DNA of 60,069 nt, from NCBI GenBank assembly GCA_964527395.1, contig CAZGQD010000007.1:8654-68722 (forward strand), written 5' to 3'. Source of the DNA: an uncultured Methanosarcinales archaeon. Its GTDB lineage: Archaea; Nanobdellota; Nanobdellia; Woesearchaeales; GW2011-AR9. The notes under the pieces are model-generated. The model did no database searches. It was not told the DNA's origin and saw only the letters and a list, made by a program, of their open reading frames with translations. The translations under genes were made by a program, and so were the position numbers. This document shows positions 1-17,138 of this stretch, one piece after another; position 1 is the first letter of the stretch; each line of letters starts with the position of its first letter.

Positions 1-48
1 TATGAATGGATATGCTCAATTAGCAAGTTTATGATTTTCTTCTCTGTT

Positions 49-64
49 GAGTTCGCATAATGTT
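49..64 (+). repeat. GAGTTCGCATAATGTT motif copy 1 (dif/XerC half-site-like)
   Basis: Identical 16-mer also at 1282-1297, 1817-1832 and 15268-15283. This copy overlaps the ATG of ORF 60..554. Confidence 0.85.
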
Positions 65-554
65 GTTGATTGTTTTTATTGTTGCAGTTGTAGGTTTAGT
101 TATGATGTTCACAGGTGGTTCTTCTAGTGGAGTTTCAGATTCTAGCGATGATGGAGCAATTGCAGGAATGGCGGTAGCAGGAGGATATTCTGGAGCAAAA
201 GGTCCTGGTGCTAGTTATTATGCATCAAATGCAGGCACTGAGGCTTCTGAATCTAGTGATGATGAAGATCTATGTTTAGATGATTGTCTTGGAGTTGCTT
301 CTGCTGCAAGAGACGAATGTTATAGTTATGCAAATGCATTGGTAGATGAATGTCAAGAGATGGTAAATGATCTTGAATCGGCTGGAATGGAGAAAGAAGC
401 AGAAGAAACTGCAGAAAATTGTAATGATAGAGTAGATGATTGGAAAGCAAATTGTGATGCCAAATATAGCAGTAATTTAGACAATTGTTGGTCTAAATGC
501 ATCACTAATGAGGATGAAGGTGACACTGGTTGGCTTGATTGGTTAATTGAATAG
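60..554 (+). CDS. Membrane-anchored acidic Cys-rich protein, possibly 5'-truncated
   Basis: N-terminal hydrophobic stretch and eight Cys with mirror spacing 3-10-10-22-10-10-3. An in-frame TGA at 48-50 prevents upstream extension. Confidence 0.75.
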   Translation: MLLIVFIVAVVGLVMMFTGGSSSGVSDSSDDGAIAGMAVAGGYSGAKGPGASYYASNAGTEASESSDDEDLCLDDCLGVASAARDECYSYANALVDECQEMVNDLESAGMEKEAEETAENCNDRVDDWKANCDAKYSSNLDNCWSKCITNEDEGDTGWLDWLIE

Positions 555-600
555 TTAACTTTTTAAATTATTTTTCTTTTTATTCTTTGGTGATTAATTA

Positions 601-1221
601 ATGAATATGAAAAAGAAAGTTACTTTTGTTCTTCTTGCTTTGTTAGTTTTTTTGTTTTTAGTGTCTTGTCAGGAAGGAATCGTGAATATTGATGAAGAAA
701 GTATTGATTCTGGAGAAACAGTTGATATGGGAACAGAAGTGGGAGCAGTTGATTCTCAAGTTGTTGTTGATGAAGAAATAGAACCAGTTGCAGAGCCTGT
801 AGAAGAAGATGAATGTACTGTTAATTCTGATTGTGGTGACTATAAACTTTGCTTAGAAGGTGTTTGTGGGACAATTAATGATGTATATGATACACACAGT
901 ACATGTGATTCAATGTGTAACTTTAATAATGTGCTTGTAAAAACAAGTGATGGTGACGAATTTACCTTGTCTCGAGGCCAAGGAAGTTACACTGGGGCAG
1001 GTTCAATTGAATGGAAATTGCTTTCTAGTGCAGAGTATTGTCTTGGAGAAGGTGCTACACCAGTTGCAATTGAGTTAACAATGAAAAATTATGGTGAAGT
1101 TGTGCAGGAAGAAGTTATTATCTTAAATCTGGGTGAAGAAAGTAAAGTAATTACTCACCCACAAATTGAAAGAATTCAGTTTACACTTGTTGTAGAAAGC
1201 TATGATGAAACTTGTTCTTAA
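601..1221 (+). CDS. Putative lipoprotein with Cys-rich repeat
   Basis: Basic N-terminus, hydrophobic core, LVSC lipobox-like site, CTVNSDCGDYKLCLEGVC motif, acidic linker. Confidence 0.7.
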   Translation: MNMKKKVTFVLLALLVFLFLVSCQEGIVNIDEESIDSGETVDMGTEVGAVDSQVVVDEEIEPVAEPVEEDECTVNSDCGDYKLCLEGVCGTINDVYDTHSTCDSMCNFNNVLVKTSDGDEFTLSRGQGSYTGAGSIEWKLLSSAEYCLGEGATPVAIELTMKNYGEVVQEEVIILNLGEESKVITHPQIERIQFTLVVESYDETCS

Positions 1222-1281
1222 GCGATTTTTTATTTTTTTTGTTTCTTCAACTTTTATGAGCTTAATGTGATTTTCTCAGTT

Positions 1282-1297
1282 GAGTTCGCATAATGTT
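1282..1297 (+). repeat. GAGTTCGCATAATGTT motif copy 2
   Basis: Exact match. Followed by TTTGCGAA, which partly restores an inverted arm (TTCGCA...TGCGAA). Confidence 0.85.
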
Positions 1298-1311
1298 TTT
1301 GCGAAAAGTTT

Positions 1312-1755
1312 ATGAATGACTATTTGTTGTTTTTTGTAGAGGTGTTTATTTTGACAGATATGTATAGTGGTGTTGCAATTAAGGATGAAATCAAAAGTGG
1401 AAAAGTTATTCTTCATGGTACATTAGTAAAACAAGGTTCTTTTAAAGGAGCAATGCATCCACACAATGTTTTGTTTGTTTTTGAAGACAATTACAAAATT
1501 AGAAATGCTTTAGTTCAAAAAAAGAAGTATTTAGTTACTTTTGGTGAAAGGCATGCAAGACGTAGTAAATACAAGTTCAGAGGAAGAATTGACAAAGATG
1601 TTGAAGTTCCAAAAAGGAAAAAAGATCATATGGTGATTACTGTTGCTAGAAGTCATTTGCTTGAAATTATTTCATTAGATGATATGTTTAGATATGACAA
1701 ATTTTTGAAAAAGTATCTTGTTCGAGGAGCACTGGTTTCAATCAGATTCTTTTGA
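1312..1755 (+). CDS. Hypothetical basic protein (start may be ATG 1360)
   Basis: 147-aa ORF between motif copies 2 and 3, followed by a T-rich tract. No recognisable motif. Confidence 0.6.
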   Translation: MNDYLLFFVEVFILTDMYSGVAIKDEIKSGKVILHGTLVKQGSFKGAMHPHNVLFVFEDNYKIRNALVQKKKYLVTFGERHARRSKYKFRGRIDKDVEVPKRKKDHMVITVARSHLLEIISLDDMFRYDKFLKKYLVRGALVSIRFF

Positions 1756-1816
1756 ATTTTTTTCTTTTGTTCTATTTATATTAGTTAAAAAGGACAAATT
1801 CATTATTTTCTCAATT

Positions 1817-1832
1817 GAGTTCGCATAATGTT
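1817..1832 (+). repeat. GAGTTCGCATAATGTT motif copy 3
   Basis: Exact match. Preceded by ATTTTCTCAATT, similar to copy 2 (ATTTTCTCAGTT), and followed by an (AG)n tract. Confidence 0.85.
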
Positions 1833-1893
1833 TGAGACATAGAGAGAGAGAGAAGTTTGTTTTAGATAATGAAATCTATAATTAATTGTTAGT

Positions 1894-1941
1894 TCGTAGT
1901 ATACTGCGAGATTTTGTTGATTATTTCGGAATATACTGCGA
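1894..1941. promoter_or_regulatory. Two imperfect palindromes (consensus TCGCAGTATACTGCGA) upstream of the ATPase TATA box
   Basis: TCGTAGTATACTGCGA at 1894-1909 and TCGGAATATACTGCGA at 1926-1941; TATTTAAA at 1944-1951. Confidence 0.5.
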
Positions 1942-1975
1942 TATATTTAAATAGAACAGTGTTTTTTGTGATTAC

Positions 1976-3283
1976 ATGTTTAAAGAGATAATATATGACC
2001 AAAATGAACATTGGAAGGGTGAATTATATCAAACTGGTGTTAAAAGAAGCCAATTTGAGAAGATAGAACGTTTGTTAAAGCTAGATCAAGTGATAACCAT
2101 AACAGGAGTTAGAAGATGTGGTAAGTCTTTTTTGCTTAAGCAAACAATAAATCATTTAATTTCAAAAGGTGTGAGTGCAAGTAATATTTTCTTTTTGAAT
2201 TTAGAAGTTCCTGATTTGGTTTTGACTAAGAGAAATTCGAAAACTTTGCAAGATCTGTTTGATATTTATTTGAAAGAGAAAGACCCTGATGGACAGATTT
2301 ATGTGTTTTTAGATGAGATACAGTTTTTTGAAGAGTGGGAAGTATTTATTAAATCAGAATACGACAAAAGAAAAGGGAAAATTAAATTTTTTATTACAGG
2401 ATCTAATAGAATGTTGCTATCAAATAAATTTGCAACCATGCTTTCTGGAAGAGTTATAGAATTAGTTTTGTTTCCTTTTAGTTTTAAGGAATTTTTGTTT
2501 AGTGAATCATATTTTGATTTTTCTAAACAAGGGTTAGTTCATAATAGAAACAAGTTATTAAAGCACTTTGAAGATTATATGATATTAGGTGGTTTTCCTG
2601 AATTGTTGAAAATCGATGAAGATGATGAGAAATCAAAGCAAGAATTGTTGCAAAGTTACTTTAAAACTATTGTGTTTAAGGATTTGGTGCCCATTTTTAA
2701 TATCAGAGATACAAAATCCATAGAAAGTGTTGGTTTGTACTTAAATTCAAATGTGTCTAAACTTTTTAGTTATAAGAAAATTGCAAATGTGATTGGAATA
2801 AATGACAAAACAGTTAAAGAATTTTTTGAAGCTTTAGAAAAAGTGTTCTTGTTTTTTGAACTAAGAAAATATGATCGTTCACTGCAAAAACAGTTAAGGA
2901 ATGCAAAAAAAGCATATTCTATTGATACTGGACTTGCTTGGAACTTAGGTTTTCGCTTCTCCTCTGATGTTACTAGATTGCTTGAGAATTTAGTGTTTAT
3001 TGAACTAAAAAGAAGAGAATTAGATGTTTATTATCATGCTTGTAAAGGAGAGTGTGATTTTGTTATTAAAGAAGGTTTGGAAATTAGTTCTGCTATTCAA
3101 GTTTGTTACAAAATTACTCCTGAGAACAAAAAAAGAGAGATAAATGGGCTTGTTGAAGCTATGAAAAGATATGAATTGAAAGAAGGCTTGATTTTGACCT
3201 TAAATGAAGAAGAAGAGACCGTAGTTAAAGATGATTTGAAGATTAATGTTTTGCCTGTTTGGAAATGGTTATTGGTTGATTGA
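1976..3283 (+). CDS. AAA+ ATPase, AAA_14/DUF4143 type
   Basis: Walker A GVRRCGKS, Walker B VFLDEIQ, ITGS, LSGR, GGFPE, DTGL, LLEN and C-terminal ECDFV...AIQV. Confidence 0.9.
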   Translation: MFKEIIYDQNEHWKGELYQTGVKRSQFEKIERLLKLDQVITITGVRRCGKSFLLKQTINHLISKGVSASNIFFLNLEVPDLVLTKRNSKTLQDLFDIYLKEKDPDGQIYVFLDEIQFFEEWEVFIKSEYDKRKGKIKFFITGSNRMLLSNKFATMLSGRVIELVLFPFSFKEFLFSESYFDFSKQGLVHNRNKLLKHFEDYMILGGFPELLKIDEDDEKSKQELLQSYFKTIVFKDLVPIFNIRDTKSIESVGLYLNSNVSKLFSYKKIANVIGINDKTVKEFFEALEKVFLFFELRKYDRSLQKQLRNAKKAYSIDTGLAWNLGFRFSSDVTRLLENLVFIELKRRELDVYYHACKGECDFVIKEGLEISSAIQVCYKITPENKKREINGLVEAMKRYELKEGLILTLNEEEETVVKDDLKINVLPVWKWLLVD

Positions 3284-3337
3284 GAAGTATAATTAATAAA
3301 AATTAGATTTTTAAACTGTTTTGAAAATTTTGGCATA

Positions 3338-3889
3338 ATGAGAGAAAAAACTGTTAATTACAGTGAACTTAAAGGAGTTGGATTAGTTGAGAGGATGCTT
3401 TTTGATAATTATATGGAAATGTTCGATATCACTGTTGAAAAGTCATTACCTTATGTTTCTTTAGCAGCGCCAGTTATGTTTGGTTTCATGTATTCTAGTG
3501 GCGATGTAGGAGGAATTTTTGAAGAATTTTCAACAAAAAATCTAGCAAATGCATTTATTTTCAGTTCGACATCAATAATTGGTTTGAAAGATCCATTAGA
3601 GGAATACATTTACAATGGTCTTTCTGTTTTTTCTAGAAAATATGGGTACGAATTTGATGAATTAATGAGGACTGTATCTCCTGGATACCGTGATGAAGTA
3701 CAATGGCAAAAATTTTCTCCAAGATCAAAGTTTTTTTTATTAACAAAGCTACATAAGGGCAAAGCATTAGGATTAGTTGCTTTTATAGCAGCATTCTACA
3801 TAGGAACACAGTTACACATGAATATTAATAGAAGTAATTCTAGTTATCTTGGGATTGAAACTGTTGTAGAAAGTGATTTTTTTGAATAG
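3338..3889 (+). CDS. Hypothetical protein with possible C-terminal membrane helix
   Basis: 183-aa ATG ORF; hydrophobic ALGLVAFIAAFYIG segment. Confidence 0.6.
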   Translation: MREKTVNYSELKGVGLVERMLFDNYMEMFDITVEKSLPYVSLAAPVMFGFMYSSGDVGGIFEEFSTKNLANAFIFSSTSIIGLKDPLEEYIYNGLSVFSRKYGYEFDELMRTVSPGYRDEVQWQKFSPRSKFFLLTKLHKGKALGLVAFIAAFYIGTQLHMNINRSNSSYLGIETVVESDFFE

Positions 3890-3945
3890 AGTTGTTTTGT
3901 TCTTAGAAAGCTTTATATCTTCGTTTTCAGGGTTTTTTTGTTATA

Positions 3946-4647
3946 ATGATTAATGATGTGACTAAAGGTAAATTCATTGTTCTTGATGGTGGAGATGGCT
4001 CTGGAAAAGGCACGCAGCTTAAGTTGCTTTTTGATAAACTTGTTTCTGAAGGAATTAAGGTGAAAGTTGCTGATTTTCCGCAGTATGGGAAATGGTCAGC
4101 AGTGTTTGTTGAAAAGTATCTACGTGGTGAATTTGGTGGCCTAGAATCAATTGGAGCAAAGAAAGGATCGCTGTTTTATGCAATGGATAGATATGCAGCC
4201 AGTTTTGATATACGAAAATGGTTAGATGAAGGTTTTGTGGTGCTATCTAACAGATATGTTTCTGCAAATAAAGGACACCAATTGGGAAAGATTAGTGATG
4301 ATTCTCAGAAAAAGGAGTTTTTAGATTGGTTAAATGAGATGGAATATTCTATCTTAGAGATACCTAAACCAGATCTGACTTTGTTTTTGCATATGCCAGC
4401 TGCGATTGGACAGAAATTAGTTGATAAAAAAGGACACCGTGATTATGTCGGTGGAGAAAAGAGAGATATCCATGAAGCTGATATTGAGCACTTGGAGAAT
4501 GCTGAAAAAGCTTTTTTGTATTGTTTGGAACATGATTCTGTTGAAAATTGGGTCCGGATTGAATGTAGCGATAGTGAAAAACCAGATACTATTGAGTCTA
4601 TACAAGAGAAAATTTATGTGAAAGTAAAGGAATTGCTTGAGAATTGA
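3946..4647 (+). CDS. tmk: Thymidylate kinase
   Basis: FIVLDGGDGSGKGTQ P-loop, (M)DRY, NRYVSAN, KPDLTLFL. Confidence 0.9.
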   Translation: MINDVTKGKFIVLDGGDGSGKGTQLKLLFDKLVSEGIKVKVADFPQYGKWSAVFVEKYLRGEFGGLESIGAKKGSLFYAMDRYAASFDIRKWLDEGFVVLSNRYVSANKGHQLGKISDDSQKKEFLDWLNEMEYSILEIPKPDLTLFLHMPAAIGQKLVDKKGHRDYVGGEKRDIHEADIEHLENAEKAFLYCLEHDSVENWVRIECSDSEKPDTIESIQEKIYVKVKELLEN

Positions 4648-4748
4648 AGGGTTTTTTTTAGAATTTGAGCATTTTTTTTACTAGTTTATTGTTGTTATTT
4701 CTGATTTGTGACAAATTATTTATAAATAAATGGCTTTTTGAGCTAGTT

Positions 4749-5729
4749 ATGACCCTCACCACCATACTAGATGGAGTTATGCCTGTTCAGAGTGCAGCTA
4801 TTCCAAAAAATAGAATGATTTCTAAATCTGAGCGTTTGTTGGGAATTTTAAGAGGTGTTGTAAATGGTGATTTGAGGGAAAGAACACTATATTCTTTAGA
4901 TTTTACAGCAATTCCATCTTGGAAAGTCCATTTTTTATTACTCAATGCAGAAGGGTTTGATGAACACTTTGTTTCTAATGAAGCAAGAGAAGCTTTTTTT
5001 GATGAATACCATCCTGGACCAACAGCAGATAGACAGATGATTACTTCTAATTTAGGAGTTGACTTGCTTGATGGAAGATCAAATAATATTGGAAATGTTC
5101 TTACACAAGTTGAAGCTATTGCAAATGAATCTAATCGTGATGAAGACGTAATGCAAAGAGTTTCTGAGATTGTAAATGATTATTTTTCTATTGGAATCAT
5201 GGGATATTTGATGTTAAGAGAAGAAGAATGGGAAGGGCTAGGTAGAGATGATTCTGCCCTTGATTATGCCGTAAGAGCTGTAGAATACAATTCTTTGTTA
5301 GGGATGGCTGAAGGCTTCTTTAATGATTGTAAAGAATTAGGAGTTGAATTTGCACCTTTAACTAGAACAGATTGGAGATATTTGCAAGAAAGGTTTGAAA
5401 GTACTTCAATAAAAGATGTTCGAGAACTTGGATCAAAAGCAGTTGATCAAGCAATTGAAACTTATTTATCTTTGAATTGTATAAGAATGAAAAAAGGTTT
5501 TAAAGTAGATTATGAGGCTTTTGTTGGAGACATAGTGCTTGTTGAGAAATTTGCTTCAGATTTAGGACTTTCTATGATGCCTAAATTAGAATGGATAAAA
5601 AAAGATGTTTCATTGAAGATGAGAAGAGAAATTGGTAGTTCAGCTTATATGCAATTATATCAGCAAAAGAAAAGAGAGTTAGAGTTGCCAAAATTAGTTG
5701 CTGGCGTTAATTATCAGGAAGTTGCATGA
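4749..5729 (+). CDS. Hypothetical alpha-helical protein
   Basis: Long ORF (track start 4665 is TTG; ATG 4749 follows a TTTATAAA box). No motif recognised. Confidence 0.6.
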   Translation: MTLTTILDGVMPVQSAAIPKNRMISKSERLLGILRGVVNGDLRERTLYSLDFTAIPSWKVHFLLLNAEGFDEHFVSNEAREAFFDEYHPGPTADRQMITSNLGVDLLDGRSNNIGNVLTQVEAIANESNRDEDVMQRVSEIVNDYFSIGIMGYLMLREEEWEGLGRDDSALDYAVRAVEYNSLLGMAEGFFNDCKELGVEFAPLTRTDWRYLQERFESTSIKDVRELGSKAVDQAIETYLSLNCIRMKKGFKVDYEAFVGDIVLVEKFASDLGLSMMPKLEWIKKDVSLKMRREIGSSAYMQLYQQKKRELELPKLVAGVNYQEVA

Positions 5730-5785
5730 TTTTTGTTGAATTTTCATAAACAACATTTCAAATTGATTCTATAAATTAGTACTTG

Positions 5786-7417
5786 TTAAAATTCTAATGG
5801 GAATTGCATACATAATCTTTTTACTTGAGCTGCAATCTGCTGGATCTCTGGATCTAACCTTGTTGCTTCGTTGAATTCTTTGAACTTCAGATCTTTATAT
5901 TTTTCACTGATGTTCATTACTTGGTTGATCCATTGAGCAATACTTTGCATTTCTTGTTCTTTCATGCCCCTTGTAGTAATCCAAGGAGTTCCTAGTCTAA
6001 GGCCGCTTGGGTTCATAGGACTCCTTGTTTCTTGTGGAATAGTATTATAATTTGAAACAATGCCAGCATGGTCAAGAGCTCTTGCGAATTTTCTTCCTAT
6101 AACTGCTTTGTTTGTAAGGTCAATTAAGATTAAATGTTTGTCTGTTCCGCCAGAGACAATGTTAAAATTGAACTTTTGTAGTTCGTTGGCAAGGAATTGA
6201 GCGTTTTTTACTGTTTGAAATTGATCTTGTTTGAATTTATCTGTCATTGCTTCTTTTAAACCAGCTGCAATACCAGCAATACAATGATTGAATGGGCCAC
6301 CTAACAAGCCTGGAAGTACTGCTTTATTGATCTTCTTGATTAATTCTTCTTTGGCAAAGATTAGTGCTCCTCTCCCAGATCTTAATGTCTTATGAGTTGT
6401 TAGAGTTACAACGTCAGCAATACCTACTGGGCTTGGATTTGCTCCTGCACTGATTAACCCTGCTTCATGTGCGATGTCTGCTAGGTAGTAAGCTCCTACT
6501 TTGTTCGCGATTTGTCTCATTCTCTTGTAATTAATGTTTCTAGGATAAGCTGTACCGCCAGTAATGATTAGTTTTGGCTTTTGTAGAGTGGCAATTCTTT
6601 CAATTTCATCATAATCGAATTGTTTTGTTTCAGGATTGGTTTTGTATGAGACACTATTGAAAATCTTTGAGGAGATGTTAACTTTGTTTGATCCACCGTA
6701 GTAAACTGACTTTTTTGGATCTGCTGGTTTTTTAGGAGTGTAAGACCAACCGTGTGAAAGATGTCCTCCGTCTGGAAGATACATACCCATAATATAATCT
6801 CCTATTTGTAATAAGGCTAAGTACACTGCTAAGTTTGCTGTTGAGCCCGATAATGCTTGAACGTTTACAGACCAGTCTTCTGGTAGATTGAAAGCTTGTT
6901 TTGCTCTATTTATTGCTAATTGTTCAATTTGATCAATGTATTTGTTACCCTCATAGTATCTTCTTTTTACATTACCTTCAGAATATTTGTGAGCTAAGAT
7001 TGATCCTGTTGCTTGTCTTACAGCTGTTGAGAAGAAGTTTTCACTTGGGATCATAGAAAGTTTGTTTTGTTGTCTTTGTTTTTCTTGCTGGATAAGGTTG
7101 TATAGTTCAGGATCTTGAGTTTCTAGATTGTTTTTATTTGTGTTTTGGATACTTGAATTTGTTTGGATATTTATTGATTCTTGTTGTTTTTGATTTACTT
7201 GATTAAATTCGCTACTTTGGATTGCTGTGGCAGTTTGAGCCATTTGACTTACTACTTGTTCTTGATTAATTTGTGTTGGTTGAGAAACTTGTGCTTGCAT
7301 ATGTATCTGATTAGTTTGAAATTGTTGTGCTTGATTAGAATGTGGATTATGTTCTTGATTTAGCTGAGTAGCTGCATCTTTTTGAGCTTGTGCACTTTTG
7401 ATTGCTTCTTGGAACAT
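5786..7417 (-). CDS. glyA: Serine hydroxymethyltransferase with Gln-rich N-terminal extension
   Basis: IPSEN, KYSEG...RYYEG, VQALSGSTAN, GGHLSHG, ADIAH, TTHKTLR (PLP Lys), SGLRLGTP. Confidence 0.95.
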   Translation of the reverse strand: MFQEAIKSAQAQKDAATQLNQEHNPHSNQAQQFQTNQIHMQAQVSQPTQINQEQVVSQMAQTATAIQSSEFNQVNQKQQESINIQTNSSIQNTNKNNLETQDPELYNLIQQEKQRQQNKLSMIPSENFFSTAVRQATGSILAHKYSEGNVKRRYYEGNKYIDQIEQLAINRAKQAFNLPEDWSVNVQALSGSTANLAVYLALLQIGDYIMGMYLPDGGHLSHGWSYTPKKPADPKKSVYYGGSNKVNISSKIFNSVSYKTNPETKQFDYDEIERIATLQKPKLIITGGTAYPRNINYKRMRQIANKVGAYYLADIAHEAGLISAGANPSPVGIADVVTLTTHKTLRSGRGALIFAKEELIKKINKAVLPGLLGGPFNHCIAGIAAGLKEAMTDKFKQDQFQTVKNAQFLANELQKFNFNIVSGGTDKHLILIDLTNKAVIGRKFARALDHAGIVSNYNTIPQETRSPMNPSGLRLGTPWITTRGMKEQEMQSIAQWINQVMNISEKYKDLKFKEFNEATRLDPEIQQIAAQVKRLCMQFPLEF

Positions 7418-7441
7418 AATTTGCTATTTGCTCCTTTTTGT

Positions 7442-7864
7442 TTATAAGGATTGTTGGTGCTTAGAGGTTGCTTTTTGCTTGTTTAATTCTAAAAGATCCC
7501 ATTTATTACCATATAAGTCTTTGAAAACTGCAACAATACCATAATCTTCTATTCTTGGCTGCTCTAAGAAATTTATTTTGTTATTTTTTAATGTTTGATA
7601 ATCCTTTTGGAAATTGTTTGTTTGTAAAAATAAGAACACTCTGCCTCCAGTTTGATTGCCTATGAATTGTTTTTGTTCTTCATTTGCTGCTTTTGCTAAT
7701 AAAAGGCTTGTTGAATACTTATTTGGTGAGACTAAAACCCAACGTTTGCGTTCAGAGATCTTTGTGTCTTCAATTAGAGTGAAGCCAAGCTTTTTTGTGT
7801 AATAATCTATTGCTTCATCATAGTCTCTAACTAAAACTGTTACGTAGGCTATAGATTTTGACAT
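7442..7864 (-). CDS. VOC/glyoxalase family protein
   Basis: VTVLVRDYDEAIDYYTKKLGF, RWVLV, YGIVAVFKDLYGNKWDL. Confidence 0.9.
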   Translation of the reverse strand: MSKSIAYVTVLVRDYDEAIDYYTKKLGFTLIEDTKISERKRWVLVSPNKYSTSLLLAKAANEEQKQFIGNQTGGRVFLFLQTNNFQKDYQTLKNNKINFLEQPRIEDYGIVAVFKDLYGNKWDLLELNKQKATSKHQQSL

Positions 7865-7929
7865 TTGTATGAAATTTTGTTGATAGGATTTATAAAGCTG
7901 TCTTTATTATTATTATTTTTTCATTAGAT

Positions 7930-8628
7930 TTATCTTTTGCCTTCTTCAATAGAACTTTTTAGTAAACTTATTGGGACTTTATAATTATCATCTCTATGTT
8001 CTGGGTCGAATGTGGCTGAACCTGCTACAAAAAGGTTTGCACCTCCCCTAGAAGCTTGATATGCTGAAGACTGACTAGATTCACCATGTTTATAATGAAT
8101 ACCACCATCTACTTCTATATCTAAATCAGGAAATCTGTCTCTTAGATAACGTATATCTTCCAAAACTCCAGGAATGAATTTTTGGTTACCAAAACCTGGA
8201 TTTACTGTCATAAGTAATACATAATCAGCAACTTCTTCAAAGATATAATCTGCTATTGCTCTTGGGTTTGTGCCTGGATTTAATGCAACACCAGCATTAA
8301 CACCTTTTTTTTTAATTCCATTTAAAATGCCATCCAAATGCGAAGTTGTTTCACAATGTACGGAAAGATAATCAAGTCCAGTATCACAATAAGCACCAAC
8401 CCACTTATCTGGATTACTAATCATAAGATGGCCATCTAATGGGAGATCCGTAGCCTTTCTTATTTGTCTAATAAGGGGCAATCCGAAAGTTAAATTATCT
8501 ACAAAGTGACCGTCCATTACGTCCAAGTGAATCCCATCTGCGCCGCCTTGTTCAAGTCTTTCAATCTCAGAACGTAGATCTAAAAAATTTGCAGATAATA
8601 AAGATGGAAATAATTTTCTTTCAAGCAT
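7930..8628 (-). CDS. rpe: Ribulose-phosphate 3-epimerase (copy 1)
   Basis: PSLLSANF, HLDVMDGHFVDNLTFG, DGHLMI, LMTVNPGFG, IEVDGGI. Confidence 0.95.
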   Translation of the reverse strand: MLERKLFPSLLSANFLDLRSEIERLEQGGADGIHLDVMDGHFVDNLTFGLPLIRQIRKATDLPLDGHLMISNPDKWVGAYCDTGLDYLSVHCETTSHLDGILNGIKKKGVNAGVALNPGTNPRAIADYIFEEVADYVLLMTVNPGFGNQKFIPGVLEDIRYLRDRFPDLDIEVDGGIHYKHGESSQSSAYQASRGGANLFVAGSATFDPEHRDDNYKVPISLLKSSIEEGKR

Positions 8629-8650
8629 TTTTATACCTCTTGTGTTGTTG

Positions 8651-9748
8651 TTACCTGACTCTTCTTTGGGAGACTAGCTTCTTTAGGTCGCTTCCGCTGC
8701 CTTGTTGCCAATGACTCGGTCTGTTACCGTCACCTTCTAAATTGTCCCAAAAGTATTCATGGTTGTAGTAATACCAAACCTGTCTTACAGGGAACTGGTG
8801 GTATTTGAAATAAGTATAAGGAATGTCGCTTGCTCTTGTAACTGTGTCTGTTGATTCATCGTAGTAAGCACCTGCAGTTGCATCAATCACAAACCATTGG
8901 TCGTCATCTTCATCATAATATTCTACCCAAGCGTGGCCACCAACTGTACCATCAAAATCAACTAGGCCTAAAGTTACTCTTACGTTTTCAGAATCTATGC
9001 CTGAAGCAATCATTAAGGATGCCAAAGTGTTTGCTTGTTCACTACAGTCACTTGCATAATCACCAGGGCTTGGGTTAGTACTCATACTCGGAGTCTCTGT
9101 GAGGAACTCTTCAGGGTAGAACCAATACTCTACTTGGCCATTTAGAACTTCTTCTGAGACCCAAATCCAAGTTAGGGCTTCATCATAGATTGATTGTAAA
9201 TCGTTTGCTGTTTGTTCTTCTAAGTCTTGTACAGCATCGGTGTCAGGTTGAACATAAGATTGGTATGATGAAAGGATAGTAATATCACCAGGATCTTGCT
9301 GCTGTTCTTCTGCACGTTTGTTTTTTAAGTATTCTTTTAGATCTTCAATATCACTTACATCTGCGTTATCTAAGGATTTTTGGAACTTTCGGTCTCTGAT
9401 CTTTTGAGTTGTTTCGTCTTCTAGAGATTTTTCAATGTTTTCAAGTAATGTTTCTAGTTGGTTTTCATTTACAAACCTAAGCATACATTCGTTATCTCTT
9501 ACGCTTTTTATTTCTGGTACTGGTATTGTTATTTGATACACATCAAACTTTTCTGCGTCTACCTTTAGAACTGGCTCATAGTTACTTAAGTCCAATGCAT
9601 CACAAGAGTCTTGGACTTGTACATAGATTGTTTGTTCACCCTTAGTAGCTTTTTGGCTAACTGGATCTGGGCTGCATGCAGTAATCAATAGAATGATTAG
9701 TGTAAATGATAGAATTGTGAATAGTGGTTTTAGACGTTTTATGGCCAT
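8651..9748 (-). CDS. Lipoprotein with transglutaminase-like (papain-fold) domain
   Basis: LITAC lipobox; catalytic-type Cys (SDCSEQA), His (GHAWVE) and Asp (IDAT). Confidence 0.8.
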   Translation of the reverse strand: MAIKRLKPLFTILSFTLIILLITACSPDPVSQKATKGEQTIYVQVQDSCDALDLSNYEPVLKVDAEKFDVYQITIPVPEIKSVRDNECMLRFVNENQLETLLENIEKSLEDETTQKIRDRKFQKSLDNADVSDIEDLKEYLKNKRAEEQQQDPGDITILSSYQSYVQPDTDAVQDLEEQTANDLQSIYDEALTWIWVSEEVLNGQVEYWFYPEEFLTETPSMSTNPSPGDYASDCSEQANTLASLMIASGIDSENVRVTLGLVDFDGTVGGHAWVEYYDEDDDQWFVIDATAGAYYDESTDTVTRASDIPYTYFKYHQFPVRQVWYYYNHEYFWDNLEGDGNRPSHWQQGSGSDLKKLVSQRRVR

Positions 9749-9875
9749 GTTTCTTTGTTTGTTGGTTTTTGCTTAAAAAACTTTTGTACTTTGAGTTATT
9801 TTGTGTTTGTTTTGTGATAGTTATTTTAGAGTTGCTAAATCATTTTAACTGAAAATTGAGCAAAAATATATTTAT

Positions 9876-10436
9876 ATGGGTGAAAAAGTGCAAAAAACTA
9901 GAATTTCTGCGGAACAGATACAATTTGAAAGGCTTAAGGTTGACCACGATGTTTCTAATTTTGAGTCTTATGAGCAAGAATTAGTTGATTTTCTGCAAGA
10001 AGATGCTTTAGATAACCAAAAAAAGCAAATTTCGGTGACCTACTTGTGTTTTTTGAGAACAGATGAATTGATTGGTTATGTAACTTTATCAGATGATAGA
10101 ATTAAGTTAGAAGGAGGGCTTAGACAAAGATTTTTGGGAAAAGGAATCCCTTATAGAGCATTGCCTGCTTTGAAAATTGGTCGTTTATGTGTTGATAATA
10201 AGTTTATTAGAAGAGGAGTTGGGACTTTGATCATGGCCTTTGCAACAAATGTGGCCGAAAACATATTTTCAGACTATTCAGGCTGTAGGTTTGTTGTTTT
10301 GGATGCAAAAAGAAATGAAGAAAATGATGTTGTTAGGTTTTACCAGAGAATTGGGTTCAAAATTATTAGAGAAAAGAAAAAAGGCAATAGTCCAATGTAT
10401 TTAGACTTAGTTAATAACCTTAAATTTAGTATTTAG
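9876..10436 (+). CDS. GNAT acetyltransferase, TacT/AtaT-like toxin type (copy 1)
   Basis: LPALKIGRLCVD...RRGVG acetyl-CoA motif, GCRFVVLDAK, FYQRIGF. Confidence 0.85.
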   Translation: MGEKVQKTRISAEQIQFERLKVDHDVSNFESYEQELVDFLQEDALDNQKKQISVTYLCFLRTDELIGYVTLSDDRIKLEGGLRQRFLGKGIPYRALPALKIGRLCVDNKFIRRGVGTLIMAFATNVAENIFSDYSGCRFVVLDAKRNEENDVVRFYQRIGFKIIREKKKGNSPMYLDLVNNLKFSI

Positions 10437-10559
10437 GGCTTTTTTAATGAAAGCAATACGTCTTGGATCAGGATTAGTCTCCTCTTTTCTCATTTTTTCT
10501 ATGAATTTGTATGCTTCTTTGCCCCTTAAGGTAGGAGTTGCTTCAATTGGTTTTGCCAT
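10407..10559 (-). CDS. 50-aa putative antitoxin/partner peptide (copy 1), absent from the ORF track
   Basis: Manual translation MAKPIEATPTLRGKEAYKFIEKMRKEETNPDPRRIAFIKKALNTKFKVIN. 36/50 identical to copy 2, with a conserved upstream promoter-like sequence. Confidence 0.8.
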   Translation of the reverse strand: MAKPIEATPTLRGKEAYKFIEKMRKEETNPDPRRIAFIKKALNTKFKVIN

Positions 10560-10610
10560 AGTTTGTTTATAGGAAGTGTTTTTTAATAAAAGTTTCTATT
10601 GAGTAACTTT

Positions 10611-10658
10611 CTCTTGAAGATAGTAAGTTCAAACTCACCTTTGTCTTGCGTTGATTCT
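10611..10658 (-). pseudogene. Duplicated 3' fragment of folA (ESTQDKGEFELTIFK)
   Basis: 30-bp block 10629-10658 identical to 11509-11538 inside folA; the adjacent differences are synonymous. Confidence 0.9.
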
Positions 10659-10711
10659 CTGCTTTTATTGCTTTAAAACACACAATTGAGTATCTAAATT
10701 CTTTTAATGAA

Positions 10712-11281
10712 GTGACTTACAAGACTATTTTGATGGTCGAAGAAAGAACAAAAGTGAAGATCACTGTTGATCAAATACAAATTGAAGTGATCAATGAAGA
10801 TTATGATGTAACTAGGTTTAGGTCTTATGAAAATGATTTAGCTAAGTTCTTAGTTGAAGATGCACTTGATAATCAAAAACAGTTCCTATCTTTGACATTT
10901 TTGTGGTTTTTTGAAGGCAGATTGGTGTCTTATATTACCATATTAAATGATAAAATCAATCTTAAAGGAGATTTGAAAGATTTCTTTAAGCAAAAAGGCA
11001 TCCATTATGGCTCTCTTCCAGCTTTGAAAATTGGTCGTTTGTGTGTAGATGACAGATTTGTTAGAAGAGGACTTGGTAAATTAATGATTCAGTCAGCCAT
11101 TTCTATTGCTAATAAGCTAAATACTAGTTGGTCTGGGTGTAGATTCATTACGTTAGATGCAAAAAGAAACGATAATCCTAGTAAAGATCCACTCAATTTC
11201 TATAAAAAACAAGGATTTAAGGTTTTGAAAGAGAAGAATGGAAGCACTACACCAATGTTTCTTGACTTGAAACTTATTTAG
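10712..11281 (+). CDS. GNAT acetyltransferase, TacT/AtaT-like toxin type (copy 2; ATG start may be 10733)
   Basis: LPALKIGRLCVDDRFVRRGLG, GCRFITLDAK, FYKKQGF. Paralog of 9876..10436. Confidence 0.85.
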   Translation: MTYKTILMVEERTKVKITVDQIQIEVINEDYDVTRFRSYENDLAKFLVEDALDNQKQFLSLTFLWFFEGRLVSYITILNDKINLKGDLKDFFKQKGIHYGSLPALKIGRLCVDDRFVRRGLGKLMIQSAISIANKLNTSWSGCRFITLDAKRNDNPSKDPLNFYKKQGFKVLKEKNGSTTPMFLDLKLI

Positions 11282-11426
11282 GAAAATTGAACTTAATGTT
11301 TAAAGCTTCTCTGATAAATGCAATACGTCTTGGATCAGGGTTAGTTTCTTCTTTAATCATGTTTTCTATGAAACGTTTAGCATCTTCTCCTTCTAATGTA
11401 GGTGTTGCTTCAATTGGTTTTGCCAT
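11274..11426 (-). CDS. 50-aa putative antitoxin/partner peptide (copy 2), absent from the ORF track
   Basis: Manual translation MAKPIEATPTLEGEDAKRFIENMIKEETNPDPRRIAFIREALNIKFNFPK. Confidence 0.8.
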   Translation of the reverse strand: MAKPIEATPTLEGEDAKRFIENMIKEETNPDPRRIAFIREALNIKFNFPK

Positions 11427-11462
11427 AATTTGTTTATATGGTGTGTTTTTTAATAAATATTT

Positions 11463-12011
11463 CTATTGATTTGTTATTATTGTGTCTTTCTTTTTGAAAA
11501 TAGTCAGCTCAAACTCACCTTTGTCTTGCGTTGATTCTTCTTTCCAAGCGTTCCAATTAATTTCTGGGAACTTAGTGTTACCTTCATATTCATGCTTTAT
11601 AAAGGAGATGTGCATTGTGTCTGCGTATTGTTCTAAAAGTTTGTATATTTGAGCTCCACCAATGATGAAGATGTCTTTTTCGTGGGTTTTGGCTAGTTGG
11701 ATGGCTTCTTCTGGTGAGTTTGCTATCTCTAATTTCGAGCATAGCTCTCTTGACTTGGCTCTTTCATCGCCAAGTATTGCTTCATTTGTGTCTGCTTGAT
11801 TCCAGCTTCTGGAGAGAATGATATTTACTCTGTTTGGGAGAGGTCTGAACTTTTTTGGGATTGATTCGTAGGTTTTTCTACCCATGATAACTACACTATT
11901 GTTTGTTAAAAGTTTGAAGTTCTTTAAGTCTGCTGGGATGTTCCAAGGAAGTTTGTTGTCTTTACCAATGATTTTGTGGGTTTTAGTCATAGCAGCTATA
12001 ATTGAGATCAT
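11463..12011 (-). CDS. folA: Dihydrofolate reductase with internal insertion
   Basis: IIAAM...IIGKDNKLPW..PADL..FK, VIMGRKTYESI, RPLPNRVNIILSR, IFIIGGAQIY, GNTKFP. Confidence 0.95.
   Translation of the reverse strand: MISIIAAMTKTHKIIGKDNKLPWNIPADLKNFKLLTNNSVVIMGRKTYESIPKKFRPLPNRVNIILSRSWNQADTNEAILGDERAKSRELCSKLEIANSPEEAIQLAKTHEKDIFIIGGAQIYKLLEQYADTMHISFIKHEYEGNTKFPEINWNAWKEESTQDKGEFELTIFKKKDTIITNQ
11731..11801. repeat. Palindromic element copy lying in frame inside folA
   Basis: TTCGAGCATAGCTCTCT..ACTTGGC-loop-GCCAAGTAT matches the intergenic element at 53102-53143; TCGAGCA pairs with TGCTTGA at 11793-11799. Confidence 0.7.
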
Positions 12012-12079
12012 GTGTTTGAGGTTGTTTGGGTTGTTTATAAAGGTGCTTGTGGAAAAGAGGGAAATTAAAAAGATAGAAT

Positions 12080-12835
12080 TTAGTAATCTGCAAATGGATT
12101 TGGCAATGAATTAACTCTTTCTTTTTCCCTCCATCTTTGGTAAGCATTTCTTAATAAGCTAATCCCTTCATCACCTTTAAAGATTAATTCAAAATCAATA
12201 GGAAATGTTGAATTAGGGTCCCTATCTCTGAAAACATAATTGTATGTCCCTAACTCAACGTACTCCTTTTCAAAGGCAGTTTTCAATTCATCTTTGGTTA
12301 AAACGAATCTAACTAATCTCTTATAATTAGGATCATTCACAAATTCATCAGTAGTATTAAAATAACTTGTATGAACAGAATCATGCCAAAAAAGATCATG
12401 ACTTGAACCTAAATCTGAACTGCTTTCACCCCATTTTATTACTTCTTCTTCAGACAATACTCTCGTTAAAATTATTTCATCTTTAAAGTTTTCTAATAAG
12501 TACATATTTATTGGTTTTGGAGTTAAGTTTTCAATTGTTCCATTGATTTTATAGATAGAATATTGAGATTTTTTATTAGAAGTGTGAGTTCCCAAAGGTA
12601 TAAGATGGCCGTTATACTCAAGGAAACTTCTATTTCTTCTTAAAGATCTTCCAAATCTCTTTACAGTAATATCGACATGGTGGGTTCTTCTACCATGCTG
12701 AAGATCCAATAGTCTATTTCTACTGTCCCTAATTGTATCAGTTACCCAATATCTTACTATTTCTTGTGATTCAGAATTAGATACTCCAAATAAATGCCAA
12801 TTGTTATTTATTATGTCAAAAAGACTTAAACCCAT
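12080..12835 (-). CDS. Hypothetical protein between thyA and folA
   Basis: 251-aa ATG ORF. No family motif recognised. Confidence 0.6.
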   Translation of the reverse strand: MGLSLFDIINNNWHLFGVSNSESQEIVRYWVTDTIRDSRNRLLDLQHGRRTHHVDITVKRFGRSLRRNRSFLEYNGHLIPLGTHTSNKKSQYSIYKINGTIENLTPKPINMYLLENFKDEIILTRVLSEEEVIKWGESSSDLGSSHDLFWHDSVHTSYFNTTDEFVNDPNYKRLVRFVLTKDELKTAFEKEYVELGTYNYVFRDRDPNSTFPIDFELIFKGDEGISLLRNAYQRWREKERVNSLPNPFADY

Positions 12836-12888
12836 TTAACCCGTAAAAAGAGACAGTTTTTAAAAATATATCTTCAATTTGCTTTAAA

Positions 12889-13788
12889 TCAAACAGAAAT
12901 TGGAGCTTTAATAGGTGGATGAGGGTCGTAGTTCTCTACTTTGATGTCTTCGAAAGTAATGTCAAACAGATTTGTCTTGTCTTTGTTGATTGTTAGATTT
13001 GGAAGTGGTCTTGGCTGTCTTTGCAGCTGTTCTCTTGTTTGGTCTAAATGGTTCAAATATAGATGCACATCGCCGCCAGTCCAAACAAAAGTGCCTGGTT
13101 CTAAGCCGCAGTGTCTTGCAACCATAATAGTAAGAAGTGCGTAAGAAGCAATATTGAAAGGTACGCCTAAGAAGACATCGCAACTTCTTTGGTATAATTG
13201 GCAAGATAGTTTTTTGTTTGTTACATTGAATTGGAATAGGCAATGGCAAGGTGGTAAGAGCATGTTTTGGATCTGAGTTGGGTTCCAAGCACAAATAATC
13301 ATTCTTCTACTATGTGGGCTTTGTTTGATTAGTTCCAAAGTGTTTTTTAATTGGTCAACACCGTTAAAATCACGCCACTGTTTACCGTAAACAGGACCAA
13401 CATCGCCCCATTTCTTTGCGAACTCTTCGTTTGTCTTGATTTGTTCTAGATACTCTTTCATTCTTGCTTTCCAAGCTTCACTGTATTTAGGATAGAGTTC
13501 TTCCAAATTATTTTGTTTTAAGAAATTTTGATAAGGCCATTCGTTCCAAATGTTTACTTTGTTTTCCACTAAGTATTTGATGTTGGTGTCGCCCTTTATA
13601 AACCACAACAGTTCGTGTGTTATTGCTCTCATGTAAGTCTTTTTGGTAGTTAGAAGTGGAAAACCTTTGCTAAGATCAAAGCGCATCTGGTAACCAAAAG
13701 TGCCTAAAGTGCCAGTACCCGTTCTGTCTTCTTTTTTCTCGCCGTTTTCTAGGACGTGTTTAAGTAAATCTAAGTATTGTTGAACCAT
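12889..13788 (-). CDS. thyA: Thymidylate synthase, bacterial type
   Basis: [64 protein letters not shown]. Confidence 0.97.
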
Positions 13789-13914
13789 TTTTGCAGCTTC
13801 TTTAGCTTGTTTTTGAGTTTAGTATTTAAATGGATTATGGTGCTGTGGGATAGAAGTGGAAAGAGTAATATTTTTAAGAGGTTAATTTATATATTGTTTA
13901 AGGTTCGCCTAATA

Positions 13915-15216
13915 ATGGTATTTGATGCTAGTAAGTATTTGTATTCCCTTCAACACTTTGGTGTGAAGTTAGGGCTTTCGCGTATGGAGAAACTAATGTC
14001 AGTGCTTGGTGATCCTCATGCTTCTTTTGCTACAGTGCATGTGGCAGGAACAAATGGGAAAGGGTCTGTTTGTGCAATGCTGGCTTCTGTGCTTAAAGCT
14101 GCTGGGTTTAAAGTTGGGCTTTATACTAGTCCACATTTAGTTAAGTTTAATGAAAGAATTAGTGTTGTTGGTGAAGCAATTAGTGAGGAGGATTTGTCTT
14201 CTATAACTTTGTCAATTAAGGAACGTTTTAATGACAGTAAAATTACTTTTTTTGAGTTTACAACAGCTGTGGCGTTTGAGTATTTTGCTCGAGAAGGTGT
14301 TGATATTGCGATAATTGAAGTTGGACTTGGGGGTCGGCTAGATGCAACTAATGTGATTAAACCAATTGTGTCTGTGATTACTAATATTGACCTTGACCAT
14401 ACAAAAGTTCTTGGTGAAACACGTTCTGAAATTGCTTTTGAGAAAGGAGGGATCATAAAAAGTGGAGTGCCGGTTGTTTGTGGTGAACGTAACACTGAGA
14501 TAATATCTTTGTTTGAGAAGATTTGCTCTGAGAGAAGGAGTGAAATATTTTCTGTTGATTATAATTATTCTATTTTGTCGTCTACAATTCATGAGCAAAA
14601 GTTTAGTTATGGTGGTTTGGAGTTTAAGCTTTCTTTGCTTGGTGAACATCAAATAGGTAATGCCTGTATAGTGTTAAAAGTACTTGAGTTACTTAGATCT
14701 AAGGGTTTTAATGTTTCTAAAGAAGCTATTGATGTTGGGTTTGCTGCTGTAAAATGGCCTGGGCGTTTACAAGTATTGTCTGAAAAACCGTTAGTAATGC
14801 TTGATGGCGCACATAATCCTGCTGGAATGGCTAAGTTGGAGGAATTTTTGAGTGAGAAATTGTTTGCAGAGACTCCTTTTGATAAGTTAGATGAAGAAAA
14901 GGCTAAAAATCCTGCTTTTGATAGGAAAAATGTATGTGTAATTGGAATATCTACTGGTAAAGATGTTGAGTGGATCTTTGAGAAGATTTCTGAATACTTT
15001 CAATCTGTGATAATTACTGAAGCTTCACATAGAGCTATTGCTAAAGAAGAGTTGGCCGAGGTTGCTGATTACTATTTTACTGGAATTGAGATTTCTGAGA
15101 TTGGATCTGCTTTAGATTTGGCTAAAGAGAAAGTTGGAGCTGATGGGTTTGTGCTGGTTACTGGATCATTGTATGTAATTGGTGATGTTTTAGCTGGGAT
15201 TGAAGGTAAAATGTAG
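13915..15216 (+). CDS. folC: Dihydrofolate synthase/folylpolyglutamate synthase
   Basis: VHVAGTNGKGS, YTSPHL..FNERI, FFEFTT, EVGLGGRLDATN, KWPGR, LDGAHNP, VTGSLYVIG. ATG 13915 preferred over TTG 13777. Confidence 0.95.
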   Translation: MVFDASKYLYSLQHFGVKLGLSRMEKLMSVLGDPHASFATVHVAGTNGKGSVCAMLASVLKAAGFKVGLYTSPHLVKFNERISVVGEAISEEDLSSITLSIKERFNDSKITFFEFTTAVAFEYFAREGVDIAIIEVGLGGRLDATNVIKPIVSVITNIDLDHTKVLGETRSEIAFEKGGIIKSGVPVVCGERNTEIISLFEKICSERRSEIFSVDYNYSILSSTIHEQKFSYGGLEFKLSLLGEHQIGNACIVLKVLELLRSKGFNVSKEAIDVGFAAVKWPGRLQVLSEKPLVMLDGAHNPAGMAKLEEFLSEKLFAETPFDKLDEEKAKNPAFDRKNVCVIGISTGKDVEWIFEKISEYFQSVIITEASHRAIAKEELAEVADYYFTGIEISEIGSALDLAKEKVGADGFVLVTGSLYVIGDVLAGIEGKM

Positions 15217-15267
15217 TTTAGTTTTGAAAAGATCGATTAATTTGAGGCGTATTTGTGTTTCTTCTTG

Positions 15268-15283
15268 GAGTTCGCATAATGTT
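15268..15283 (+). repeat. GAGTTCGCATAATGTT motif copy 4
   Basis: Exact match, 51 nt after the folC stop, at the left edge of the lipoprotein/PP2C islet. Confidence 0.85.
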
Positions 15284-15384
15284 TGTGGTTGTGTCTGTTT
15301 CATATATGATTAACCTACAGATAGTAGTGTTTTTCGTGATTTTAACTGGTTATATTTATAAAAAAGAGCCATATTTTGAGCTTA

Positions 15385-16206: not shown

Positions 16207-16312
16207 AGTGGACAATATAGTAGTGGACTTGCTGCAGGAGAATTGAACAGAGTGTCTGTTTTTAACTTATATGAATGAAAATAACAATTGAATTTAGTGA
16301 GGAATTATAAAA

Positions 16313-17074: not shown

Positions 17075-17138
17075 AATTGATTTTATTTTTTTATTTAATT
17101 AGCACATTGAAAAAAATTGAAAAAAGTGAGTGAATGAA

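Follow-up and report, generated by a model that had tools for sequence, protein, structure and literature searches.

The window analysed here is a 60,069-nt stretch of DNA (contig CAZGQD010000007.1) from a marine, Woesearchaeota-like DPANN archaeon, in which a 16-nt motif, GAGTTCGCATAATGTT, recurs behind genes and resembles one arm of dif, the target site of the tyrosine recombinase XerA. The window has a GC content of 33%. Its genes include those for enzymes of folate/thymidylate and pentose-phosphate metabolism and for TrmB, and many of its proteins have no family assignment; searches for tRNAs and Rfam families found none in it. Named matches of its FolC protein include 'archaeon' and 'Candidatus Woesearchaeota archaeon', the closest homologues are 52–59% identical, and the same strain is present in several marine metagenomes. 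A second contig, Ga0105016_1001527 (L062), is 100% identical to the window over their overlap and adds 8,025 nt leftwards (L062 position = window position + 8025; negative window positions lie in this added DNA).

As the preliminary description of this DNA had stated, the 16-mer occurs exactly four times in the window, at 49, 1282, 1817 and 15268 (c1 to c4), always on the + strand. No further match was found in the window even when up to three mismatches were allowed, and a shuffle control gave a mean of 0.59 matches, with four copies reached in 0 of 100 shuffles. The common stretch runs leftwards to about 29 nt (ATTTTCTCAGTTGAGTTCGCATAATGTTT), over which the copies are 79–100% identical to the reference; to the right of TGTT their likeness drops off abruptly, and the left flank is fuzzy. 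The 16-mer is made up of a G, the arm AGTTCGCATAA, which matches the consensus arm of the clade perfectly, and TGTT(N), with which the central region begins. Its reported agreement with the E. coli dif arm at 12 of 14 positions is correct, as is the placement of copies 2 to 4 shortly behind stop codons, the gaps being 60 nt for c2 (stop ends at 1221), 61 nt for c3 (1755) and 51 nt for c4 (15216). The gene upstream of c1 is visible only on L062 and has its stop at window 32–34, 14 nt before the motif. A second arm in register was not found at any of c1 to c4; the partial second arm that had been noted in c2, TGCGAA, does lie there, at 1300–1305, and is 3 nt too near the first arm and thus out of register. 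The flank of c3 contains a 10-bp palindrome, CTCAATTGAG, and that of c4 (TGTTTCTTCTTG) is the most diverged. Directly 3′ of c3, at window 1841–1853, there is a short (GA)n tract (agagagagagaga).

The preliminary description had taken the motif for an Xer-type half-site and had called for a search for a xerA gene and for full 28-bp, two-arm versions of the site. We found that both are present. A xerA gene lies 1.8 kb upstream of the window, and its product scores 241 bits on the NCBIfam XerA_Arch equivalog model (NF040815; cut-off 220). The best solved structure for this protein is that of P. abyssi XerA (PDB 4a8e, E 1e-51), and in an alignment with the latter it keeps the RHSFATH, LLGHS and catalytic-Tyr motifs. 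Scanning for complete sites with an 11-6-11 layout, TAA-N6-TTA and an arm symmetry of at least 8/11 gave a sole motif-bearing site in this genome, TGTTCGCATAA-TGTTGA-TTATCCGTACT (as a whole, TGTTCGCATAATGTTGATTATCCGTACT; arm symmetry 8/11 positions), at L062 3078–3105 (window −4947..−4920). Convergent small genes flank this complete dif, which is 2.3 kb upstream of xerA and 5 kb left of c1. Extra direct copies of the core GTTCGCATAATGTT occur at L062 2578 (s1) and at 3079, the latter as part of the complete site; s1 has a second-arm remnant, GTGAACC, that is 4 nt too close. An inverted GGTTCGCATAA lies at L062 2099 and a degenerate copy at 2448. Six direct 14-mers are thus gathered in 21 kb around dif and xerA, and the rest of the window, 45 kb, has none.

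Related DPANN archaea have XerA orthologues that are 62–66% identical, and five of these relatives (L066, L068, L070, L071 and L072) each have one canonical dif, 2.7–8 kb upstream of xerA (Table 1), with the consensus AGTTCGYATAA-TGTATA-TTATNCG... In the alignment of the six dif sites upstream of xerA, GTTCG.(A/C)TAATGT is invariant. The case that the 16-mer is the left arm of the predicted XerA target, followed by the first five bases of the central region (TGTT plus one), is strongly supported, because the relatives' dif sites upstream of xerA carry the same arm. The linked xerA and the two-arm dif sites in six genomes therefore bear out the earlier assignment to the Xer type.

In archaeal dif sites, TAA-N6-8-TTA is the most conserved feature, and the T. 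kodakarensis site reads TTTTGATATAA-TGTACC-TTATATGACAA (PMC11840125; PMC2958812; PMC8371274). The dif of the present clade shares 19–21 consecutive bases (GTTCGYATAATGTATATTAT) with widespread bacterial dif sites or sites of mobile elements that integrate by exploiting Xer (IMEX), and the dif of Thermococcales is far less close; the right arm of the clade dif is the palindromic partner of its left arm, not an XerD arm. When IMG/VR was scanned with the full clade dif, 33 contigs matched GTTCGYATAATGTATATTA, nearly all of which then continue with the bacterial XerD arm TTATGTTAAAT / TGTTAAAT. We rejected these matches as archaeal IMEX elements: both contigs that were checked are bacterial, one an inovirus with Zot and secretin and the other an amidase-bearing phage. 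The locus provides a confident in-silico dif and a linked xerA–dif module in a Woesearchaeota-like clade, strikingly near to bacterial dif. GC and GTTG/GTTC skews had no consistent sign change at dif over the 14–23 kb available per locus, a range in which gene orientation dominates the signal.

The surroundings of dif, L062 1800–3800 (window −6225..−4225), are mostly non-coding and rich in repeats. Units of 80–140 nt lie at L062 1886–2026, 2642–2723, 3502–3642 and 3720–3756, with hairpin-like cores of the form AAAAAGCC(N)GGCTTTTTT, and recall the conserved dif-surrounding sequences of Thermococcales. At L062 2090–2125 (window −5935..−5900), two dif arms stand tail to tail, TTATGCGAACC-12 nt-GGTTCTGCAAT, the opposite of the normal arrangement. 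Three independent assemblies of another marine relative (L073, L074 and L075) all start about 4.4 kb upstream of xerA, where dif would be expected, which suggests that their breaks reflect strain heterogeneity or repeats in the dif region.

A further half-site lies in the promoter region of xerA itself. In four genomes it stands on the strand opposite to xerA, 30–45 nt upstream of the xerA start and against a TATA-like box (TTATCCGAAC in L062). Judging by this position, the locus also yields a half-site that probably serves XerA autoregulation.

These comparisons show c1 to c4 to be one-armed duplicates of the predicted XerA target, clustered around the xerA–dif module. They are pseudo-dif sites that would be incapable of canonical two-arm recombination: because the second arm is absent, they cannot hold the two XerA monomers needed for a complete exchange. 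The one-armed copies also have a left flank that is T-rich and contains CTC..GAG, whereas the aligned true dif sites lack such a flank.

The flanked one-armed motif recurs in only one of six related lineages. This is L068, a 665-kb contig with a XerA that is 63% identical, in which GTTCGCATAA has 10 matches at up to one mismatch against 1.4 expected. A left flank like that of c1 to c4 is found in two of them, ttcttctcggaGAGTTCGCATAAaactaa (8914) and gttctctgaGAGTTCGCATAATGTTcc (13395); the copy at 13395 holds the exact 16-mer with a similar flank (TTCTCTGAGAGTTCGCATAATGTT), though the centre of this genome's own dif is TGTATA, not TGTT. In the other five lineages (L066, L070, L071, L072 and L073/L074) no flanked motif lies within about 10 kb of xerA. 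All six flanked copies, c1 to c4 and the two in L068, lie 14–68 nt after a same-strand stop codon and behind a T-rich tract. This patchy spread points to horizontal transfer of what may be an attachment (att) site. The FolC-based relatives L060 and L061 have neither the motif nor an equivalent repeat. Scans with the 16-mer of 185,579 species genomes, JGI metagenome contigs and IMG/VR gave single matches only, lacking the shared flank; as the contigs of the window itself were not among the matches, the scans are uninformative on the rest of this genome. Thirteen IMG/VR contigs (L042–L059) with the exact 16-mer were set aside as an unrelated coincidence; in all of them it falls within a single conserved coding stretch whose third codon positions vary (ctggtg.gt.tt.tc.ta.cGAGTTCGCATAATGTTcca).

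The DNA between c2 and c3 holds a single gene, called at 1312–1755 (147 aa), with a likely TTG start at 1351 after a GAGGTG Shine–Dalgarno sequence. The encoded protein is an ORFan: a search of 5.8 billion proteins found no homologue, neither Pfam nor PHROG gave a match, and its AlphaFold2 model is uninformative (predicted local distance difference test score, 33). Similarly, s1 and the complete dif flank 501 bp with one open reading frame (ORF) of 101 aa. No recombinase gene lies inside either segment, so that direct dif-like sites flank integrase-less DNA at c2/c3 and at s1/dif, as in IMEX. Copy c4 coincides exactly with a synteny break relative to L060 and L061, and c1 is also at a synteny break. 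In L060 and L061, the genes behind FolC run DHFR-262aa-CARDB-FtsX-FtsX; in the window, c4 comes next, and after it five surface-protein genes specific to this lineage and the FtsX-FtsX-CARDB block in inverted form. No counterparts were seen in the loci of the relatives for the two genes left of c1, one of 164 aa (minus strand) and one of 396 aa. Mapping metagenome contigs onto the motif recovered the c2, c3 and c4 contexts only, a procedure too insensitive for copies like c1, and no strain variants were found at c4.

Positions of the features at and around the one-armed dif copies are collected in Table 1.

Table 1. Features of the locus and of the xerA–dif regions of relatives (window positions unless another contig is named).
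Feature	Position	Strand	Remarks
c1, one-armed dif copy	37..65	+	Flank 37–48, arm AGTTCGCATAA 50–60, TGTTG 61–65; without second arm
c2, one-armed dif copy with second-arm remnant	1270..1305	+	Follows the stop of the 206-aa gene by 60 nt
c3, one-armed dif copy	1805..1833	+	28/29 identical to c2 (97%)
c4, one-armed dif copy	15256..15284	+	Most diverged flank; 51 nt after the FolC stop
c2–c3 segment	1298..1816	+	535 bp between the copies, single ORFan gene; best candidate for an inserted module
xerA, 276-aa tyrosine recombinase	L062 5405–6235 (window −2620..−1790)		1.8 kb before the window start
xerA-promoter half-site	L062 5352–5361 (window −2673..−2664); L071 ~9961–9971; L072 ~9960–9970; L068 ~9988–9998		Putative XerA operator
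dif of L070			AGTTCGCATAA-TGTATA-TTATACGTAAT
dif of L071			AGTTCGCATAA-TGTATA-TTATCCGAAGT
dif of L072			AGTTCGTATAA-TGTATA-TTATGCGTAGT
dif of L068			GGTTCGCCTAA-TGTATA-TTATGCGGAGT
dif of L066			GGTTCGTATAA-TGTATA-TTACGAGCCGT
164-aa secreted or membrane Cys-rich acidic protein	60..554	+	Start is the ATG of c1 only in the allele without the 104-nt segment
206-aa gene between c1 and c2	601..1221	+	Conserved and syntenic; not a foreign cassette
AAA_14/DUF4143 ATPase gene and 183-aa gene	1976..3889	+	Right of c3, lineage-specific; no counterpart in the relatives' loci
FolC	13915..15216	+	Core gene directly left of c4
TATA box of gene 15385	15352–15363		Predicted leaderless promoter
Five lineage-specific surface or lipoprotein genes	15385..20271	+	Right of c4

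The first of the genes right of c4, at 15385, encodes a lipoprotein-like signal that ends in SSGC, and two tandem paralogue pairs of unknown function follow (253/265 aa and 340/391 aa; window 16313–20271). The FtsX-FtsX-CARDB block (window 20376–24282) is inverted relative to FolC in comparison with L060 and L061, and Tmk (3946–4647) is inverted relative to SHMT. Upstream of the TATA box of the AAA_14/DUF4143 gene, at window 1914–1972, there are operator-like direct repeats, (T/A)ATACTGCGA(G/T)AT, 32 nt apart; a paralogue of this gene at 50245–51480 has an unrelated upstream region. Elsewhere in the window, the end of a GNAT acetyltransferase gene and the region downstream of it are duplicated (10400–10658 and 11267–11538, 78–93% identical), each duplicate carrying a 50-codon antisense ORF called by gene finders, and an intergenic T-rich, microsatellite-like tract, (TTTTG/TTGTT)n, lies at 35108–35179.

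The metagenome unitigs revealed a population polymorphism beside c1, at window 70–76, which consists of 97 inserted nt together with the 7-nt repeat TTGTTTT. This insert begins with AGTTAATTTTATATATCAATTTT and ends with AGTAACTATCTTATTGCAG, its middle ~55 nt could not be read, and it opens with AGTTAATTTTATATAT, a TATA box. The two forms have depths of 28.5 and 25.2 in X1 and of 30.2 and 8.6 in X2; the insert form makes up about half of the population in X1 and is the sole form seen in X3 and X5. The insert separates the ORF at 60–554 from the ATG of the motif. We rejected this indel as an Xer crossover, since 104 nt is not a multiple of three and its breakpoints have 7-nt microhomology and lie off the predicted crossover.

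What produced the one-armed copies? The reading that we favour, to which we would give about an even chance, is that c1 to c4 are hybrid att-type junctions left by XerA strand exchange, by analogy with IMEX elements. XerA bound to the left arm would exchange one strand pair at the border between arm and central region, the partners being the true site, or an earlier half-site, and DNA bearing a one-armed dif mimic; the logic of insertion would be that of Xer-exploiting mobile elements in bacteria. The sites today, from their sequences, probably still bind a XerA monomer yet are recombinationally dead or nearly so. An origin as hybrid junctions would explain the 100% identity through TGTT and its abrupt loss thereafter, the direct orientation of all copies, the element-type T-rich CTC..GAG flank that is lacking in true dif, the near identity of c2 and c3 on either side of a 535-bp ORFan segment, the arm remnants that s1 and c2 keep out of register, and the patchy distribution across lineages. 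A bolder form of this idea, which we regard as unlikely, is that XerA and one-armed dif mimics constitute an integron-like gene-capture platform in some DPANN archaea. Small circular modules, each with one ORFan gene and a terminal T-rich-CTC..GAG-AGTTCGCATAA-TGTT site, would insert at dif or at earlier half-sites via a single pair of strand exchanges, and horizontal spread between lineages would build a variable gene neighbourhood at xerA–dif. If true, this would be the first case of IMEX-type elements known for archaeal XerA.

Several observations weigh against an origin as hybrid junctions. The intact dif is the second of six direct copies, whereas simple growth of an IMEX array predicts it at the 3′ end. 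Orthologues of the 206-aa gene between c1 and c2 occur in L066 (13766–14407, 49% identical) and L070 (12690–13325, 47%; both by blastp), where they lie about 3 kb downstream of xerA without half-sites nearby, and the 13.4 kb between c3 and c4 consists of core genes (Tmk, SHMT, Rpe, DHFR, ThyA and FolC) that are syntenic in relatives. Some intervals between copies are not cassettes. The preliminary description had regarded the copies as relic junctions that delimit small gene cassettes, and this agrees with the c2/c3 and s1/dif segments and with the synteny break at c4, but fails for the syntenic gene between c1 and c2 and for the core genes between c3 and c4. Differences between strains in the presence of the intervening genes, to which it had also looked, were not seen in the available metagenome contigs, nor were empty sites, joints or circle junctions, although such contigs hide rare forms. 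Pfam, NCBIfam and PHROG searches of all the small genes around the sites gave no matches, none of the genes near any copy resembles those of plasmids or viruses, and the only polymorphism beside a copy, the 104-nt indel, lies away from the crossover that would be predicted. Because the order of the array and the core genes between copies are left unexplained, an origin of the copies as XerA-made junctions requires that rearrangements came later or that DNA inserted into half-sites already present.

Among other explanations, the main one is that selection has kept the one-armed sites as XerA-binding sites with a host function other than recombination, such as repressing or insulating operators, termination roadblocks for the upstream gene or terminus landmarks like the XerD half-sites that unload SMC. 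We consider this rather unlikely, yet much of the evidence is compatible with it. The xerA-promoter half-site in four genomes makes it seem that one-armed sites are used as XerA operators; all six flanked copies are regularly placed behind stop codons; the four copies in the window are identical over 16 nt, and the same 16-mer persists across genomes whose XerA proteins are 63% identical. The sites have one arm only and cluster near dif, and action of XerD near dif without recombination is established in bacteria, as cited in PMC11840125. The absence of the motif near xerA in five of six related lineages would, however, be odd for a conserved function, and the orthologous intergenic regions of L066 and L070 are without a site. 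Binding alone also leaves unexplained the conserved TGTT and the flank bases beyond the 11-nt arm, and the distance to the predicted downstream TATA boxes varies from about 12 to 114 nt. The last finding bears equally on the possibility that the motif resembles dif by coincidence and is a common type of promoter, leader or start-codon element, or is bound as an operator by a transcription factor unrelated to XerA: a fixed distance from transcription starts, which the preliminary description had named as the mark of a promoter-type element, is not what the predicted TATA boxes have. Such an element is suggested by the ATG at motif positions 12–14, which opens the ORF at 60–554 (c1) and a 54-codon ORF (c4), by weak A/T-rich, TATA-like stretches 22–32 nt upstream of this ATG, and by the use in this genome of leaderless mRNAs with a TATA box about 27 nt before the ATG. 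The same ATG gives just 8 codons at c2 and 4 at c3, it is missing from the L068 copy at 8914, and at c1 it is in frame in only one allele, the insert form having its own TATA box. The AAA_14 ATPase gene (ATG 1976) and the lipoprotein gene (ATG 15385), downstream of c3 and c4, have canonical TATA boxes of their own about 27 nt before their ATGs, a spacing that indicates archaeal leaderless promoters; the boxes lie 114 and 70 nt beyond the motif. As six two-arm dif sites, each located independently, have the motif as their arm, we consider a promoter-type element highly improbable. We likewise rejected the motif ATG as a conserved start codon, since it is a start in one allele of one gene only, and the motif as a protein C terminus (..FSVEFA*) or TAATG coupling, since the gene upstream of c1 ends at 32–34 in another frame. 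The RNA runs contain 0% of the sequence.

Neutral origins were also considered, the copies being leftovers of local duplications in the dif region or chance repeats, in either case unconnected to XerA. The repeat-rich neighbourhood of dif, with its 80–140-nt units at L062 1886–3756, and several tandem gene duplications in the window lend this some plausibility; we nevertheless judge it very unlikely, as four copies did not arise in any of the shuffles, the 29 nt are bordered by unrelated DNA on either side, with no duplicated block visible, relics would not stay identical at 16/16 positions in four copies amid randomized flanks, and the 16-mer also occurs in a distant genome (L068). Finally, the copies might be attC-like sites of integron cassettes, or ends of transposons or miniature inverted-repeat transposable elements moved by another enzyme. 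In line with such a view, the repeats are direct, share one strand and follow stop codons, and ORFan genes separate some of them; GTTGAGT of c1 and c2 fits the integron core GTTRRRY, and XerA scores 211 bits on the integron-integrase model TIGR02249. This score is below the cut-off of 265, the match is split into two stretches and the protein has only 276 aa; there is no conserved hairpin or inverse core, and eight DNA folds on both strands gave z-scores of −1.2 to +1.6, which is no better than shuffled sequence, with no shared structure. No terminal inverted repeats, target duplications or nearby transposase point to a transposon, and the repeat is merely about 29 nt long. We therefore find an attC or transposon origin scarcely credible.

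The interest of the locus lies partly in its host. The genomes of DPANN archaea are tiny, change fast and abound in ORFan surface genes, and the route by which these archaea gain genes is poorly understood; the one-armed array may record XerA-mediated insertion of small gene modules. If the sites are instead selected XerA-binding landmarks, they would give a first hint of non-recombination roles of archaeal XerA. Archaeal XerA/dif, bacterial IMEX, pdif modules and XerD half-sites are already known; in the literature searched, we found no account of dif in DPANN archaea, of one-armed dif arrays in archaea or of elements that exploit XerA.

XerA and dif resolve chromosome dimers in archaea, as studied in Pyrococcus, Thermococcus and Thermoplasma (PMC2958812, PMC3646895, PMC8371274). 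The present module agrees with these systems in its single XerA, in a 28-bp dif with two 11-bp inverted arms (..TAA / TTA..) around a 6-bp spacer, in the intergenic position of the site, here between convergent genes, and in the linkage of xerA and dif, which is found in some archaea (PMC5357621). It differs in that AGTTCGCATAA-TGTATA-TTAT of this clade matches bacterial dif far better than TTTTGATATAATGTACCTTATATGACAA of T. kodakarensis does, and in that the clade sites share 19–21 nt with sites of bacterial inovirus prophages. Furthermore, dif is normally present in a single copy, whereas here five extra one-armed copies surround it.

The half-sites of Bacillus subtilis are similar in having one Xer arm only and in being clustered in the dif region; Karaboja et al. 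(2021) reportedly found that XerD-binding half-sites near the terminus unload SMC, and these are bound without recombination. By contrast, the motif described here is missing from most relatives, and its copies are co-oriented on both sides of dif. A role of XerD in SMC unloading is cited in PMC11840125.

Parallels are also offered by elements that carry genes. IMEX have an attP with a non-canonical arm and form arrays of hybrid sites at dif (PMC9226527), and integration of LME-1 leaves one intact and one modified dif (PMC9765430); examples are TLCphi/CTXphi in Vibrio cholerae, the gonococcal genetic island and Legionella LME-1 (PMC9226527, PMC9765430). Bacterial IMEX carry toxins and resistance genes. 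They are integrase-less and use the Xer enzyme of the host, including cases with a single recombinase (XerL), and both they and, on the reading favoured here, the present locus have direct arrays of hybrid, poorly recombining dif-like sites with one intact dif. The segments here differ in being tiny (0.5–1.2 kb) and without replication or virion genes, some intervals are core genes, and the intact site stands inside the array rather than at its end. The pdif modules of Acinetobacter are likewise small units of 1–3 genes between Xer-type sites, many per replicon (PMC6449649, PMC7399989). The pdif sites, however, are found on plasmids, possess both arms (XerC/XerD) and alternate in orientation (inverse), whereas those described here are one-armed, all direct and chromosomal and are linked to a single recombinase. 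Integron cassettes, finally, are co-oriented, ORFan single-gene units that end in a recombination sequence, moved by a recombinase, IntI, to which XerA is related; here there are no attC hairpins and no IntI-specific domain, and the sequence shared by the copies is the arm of dif.

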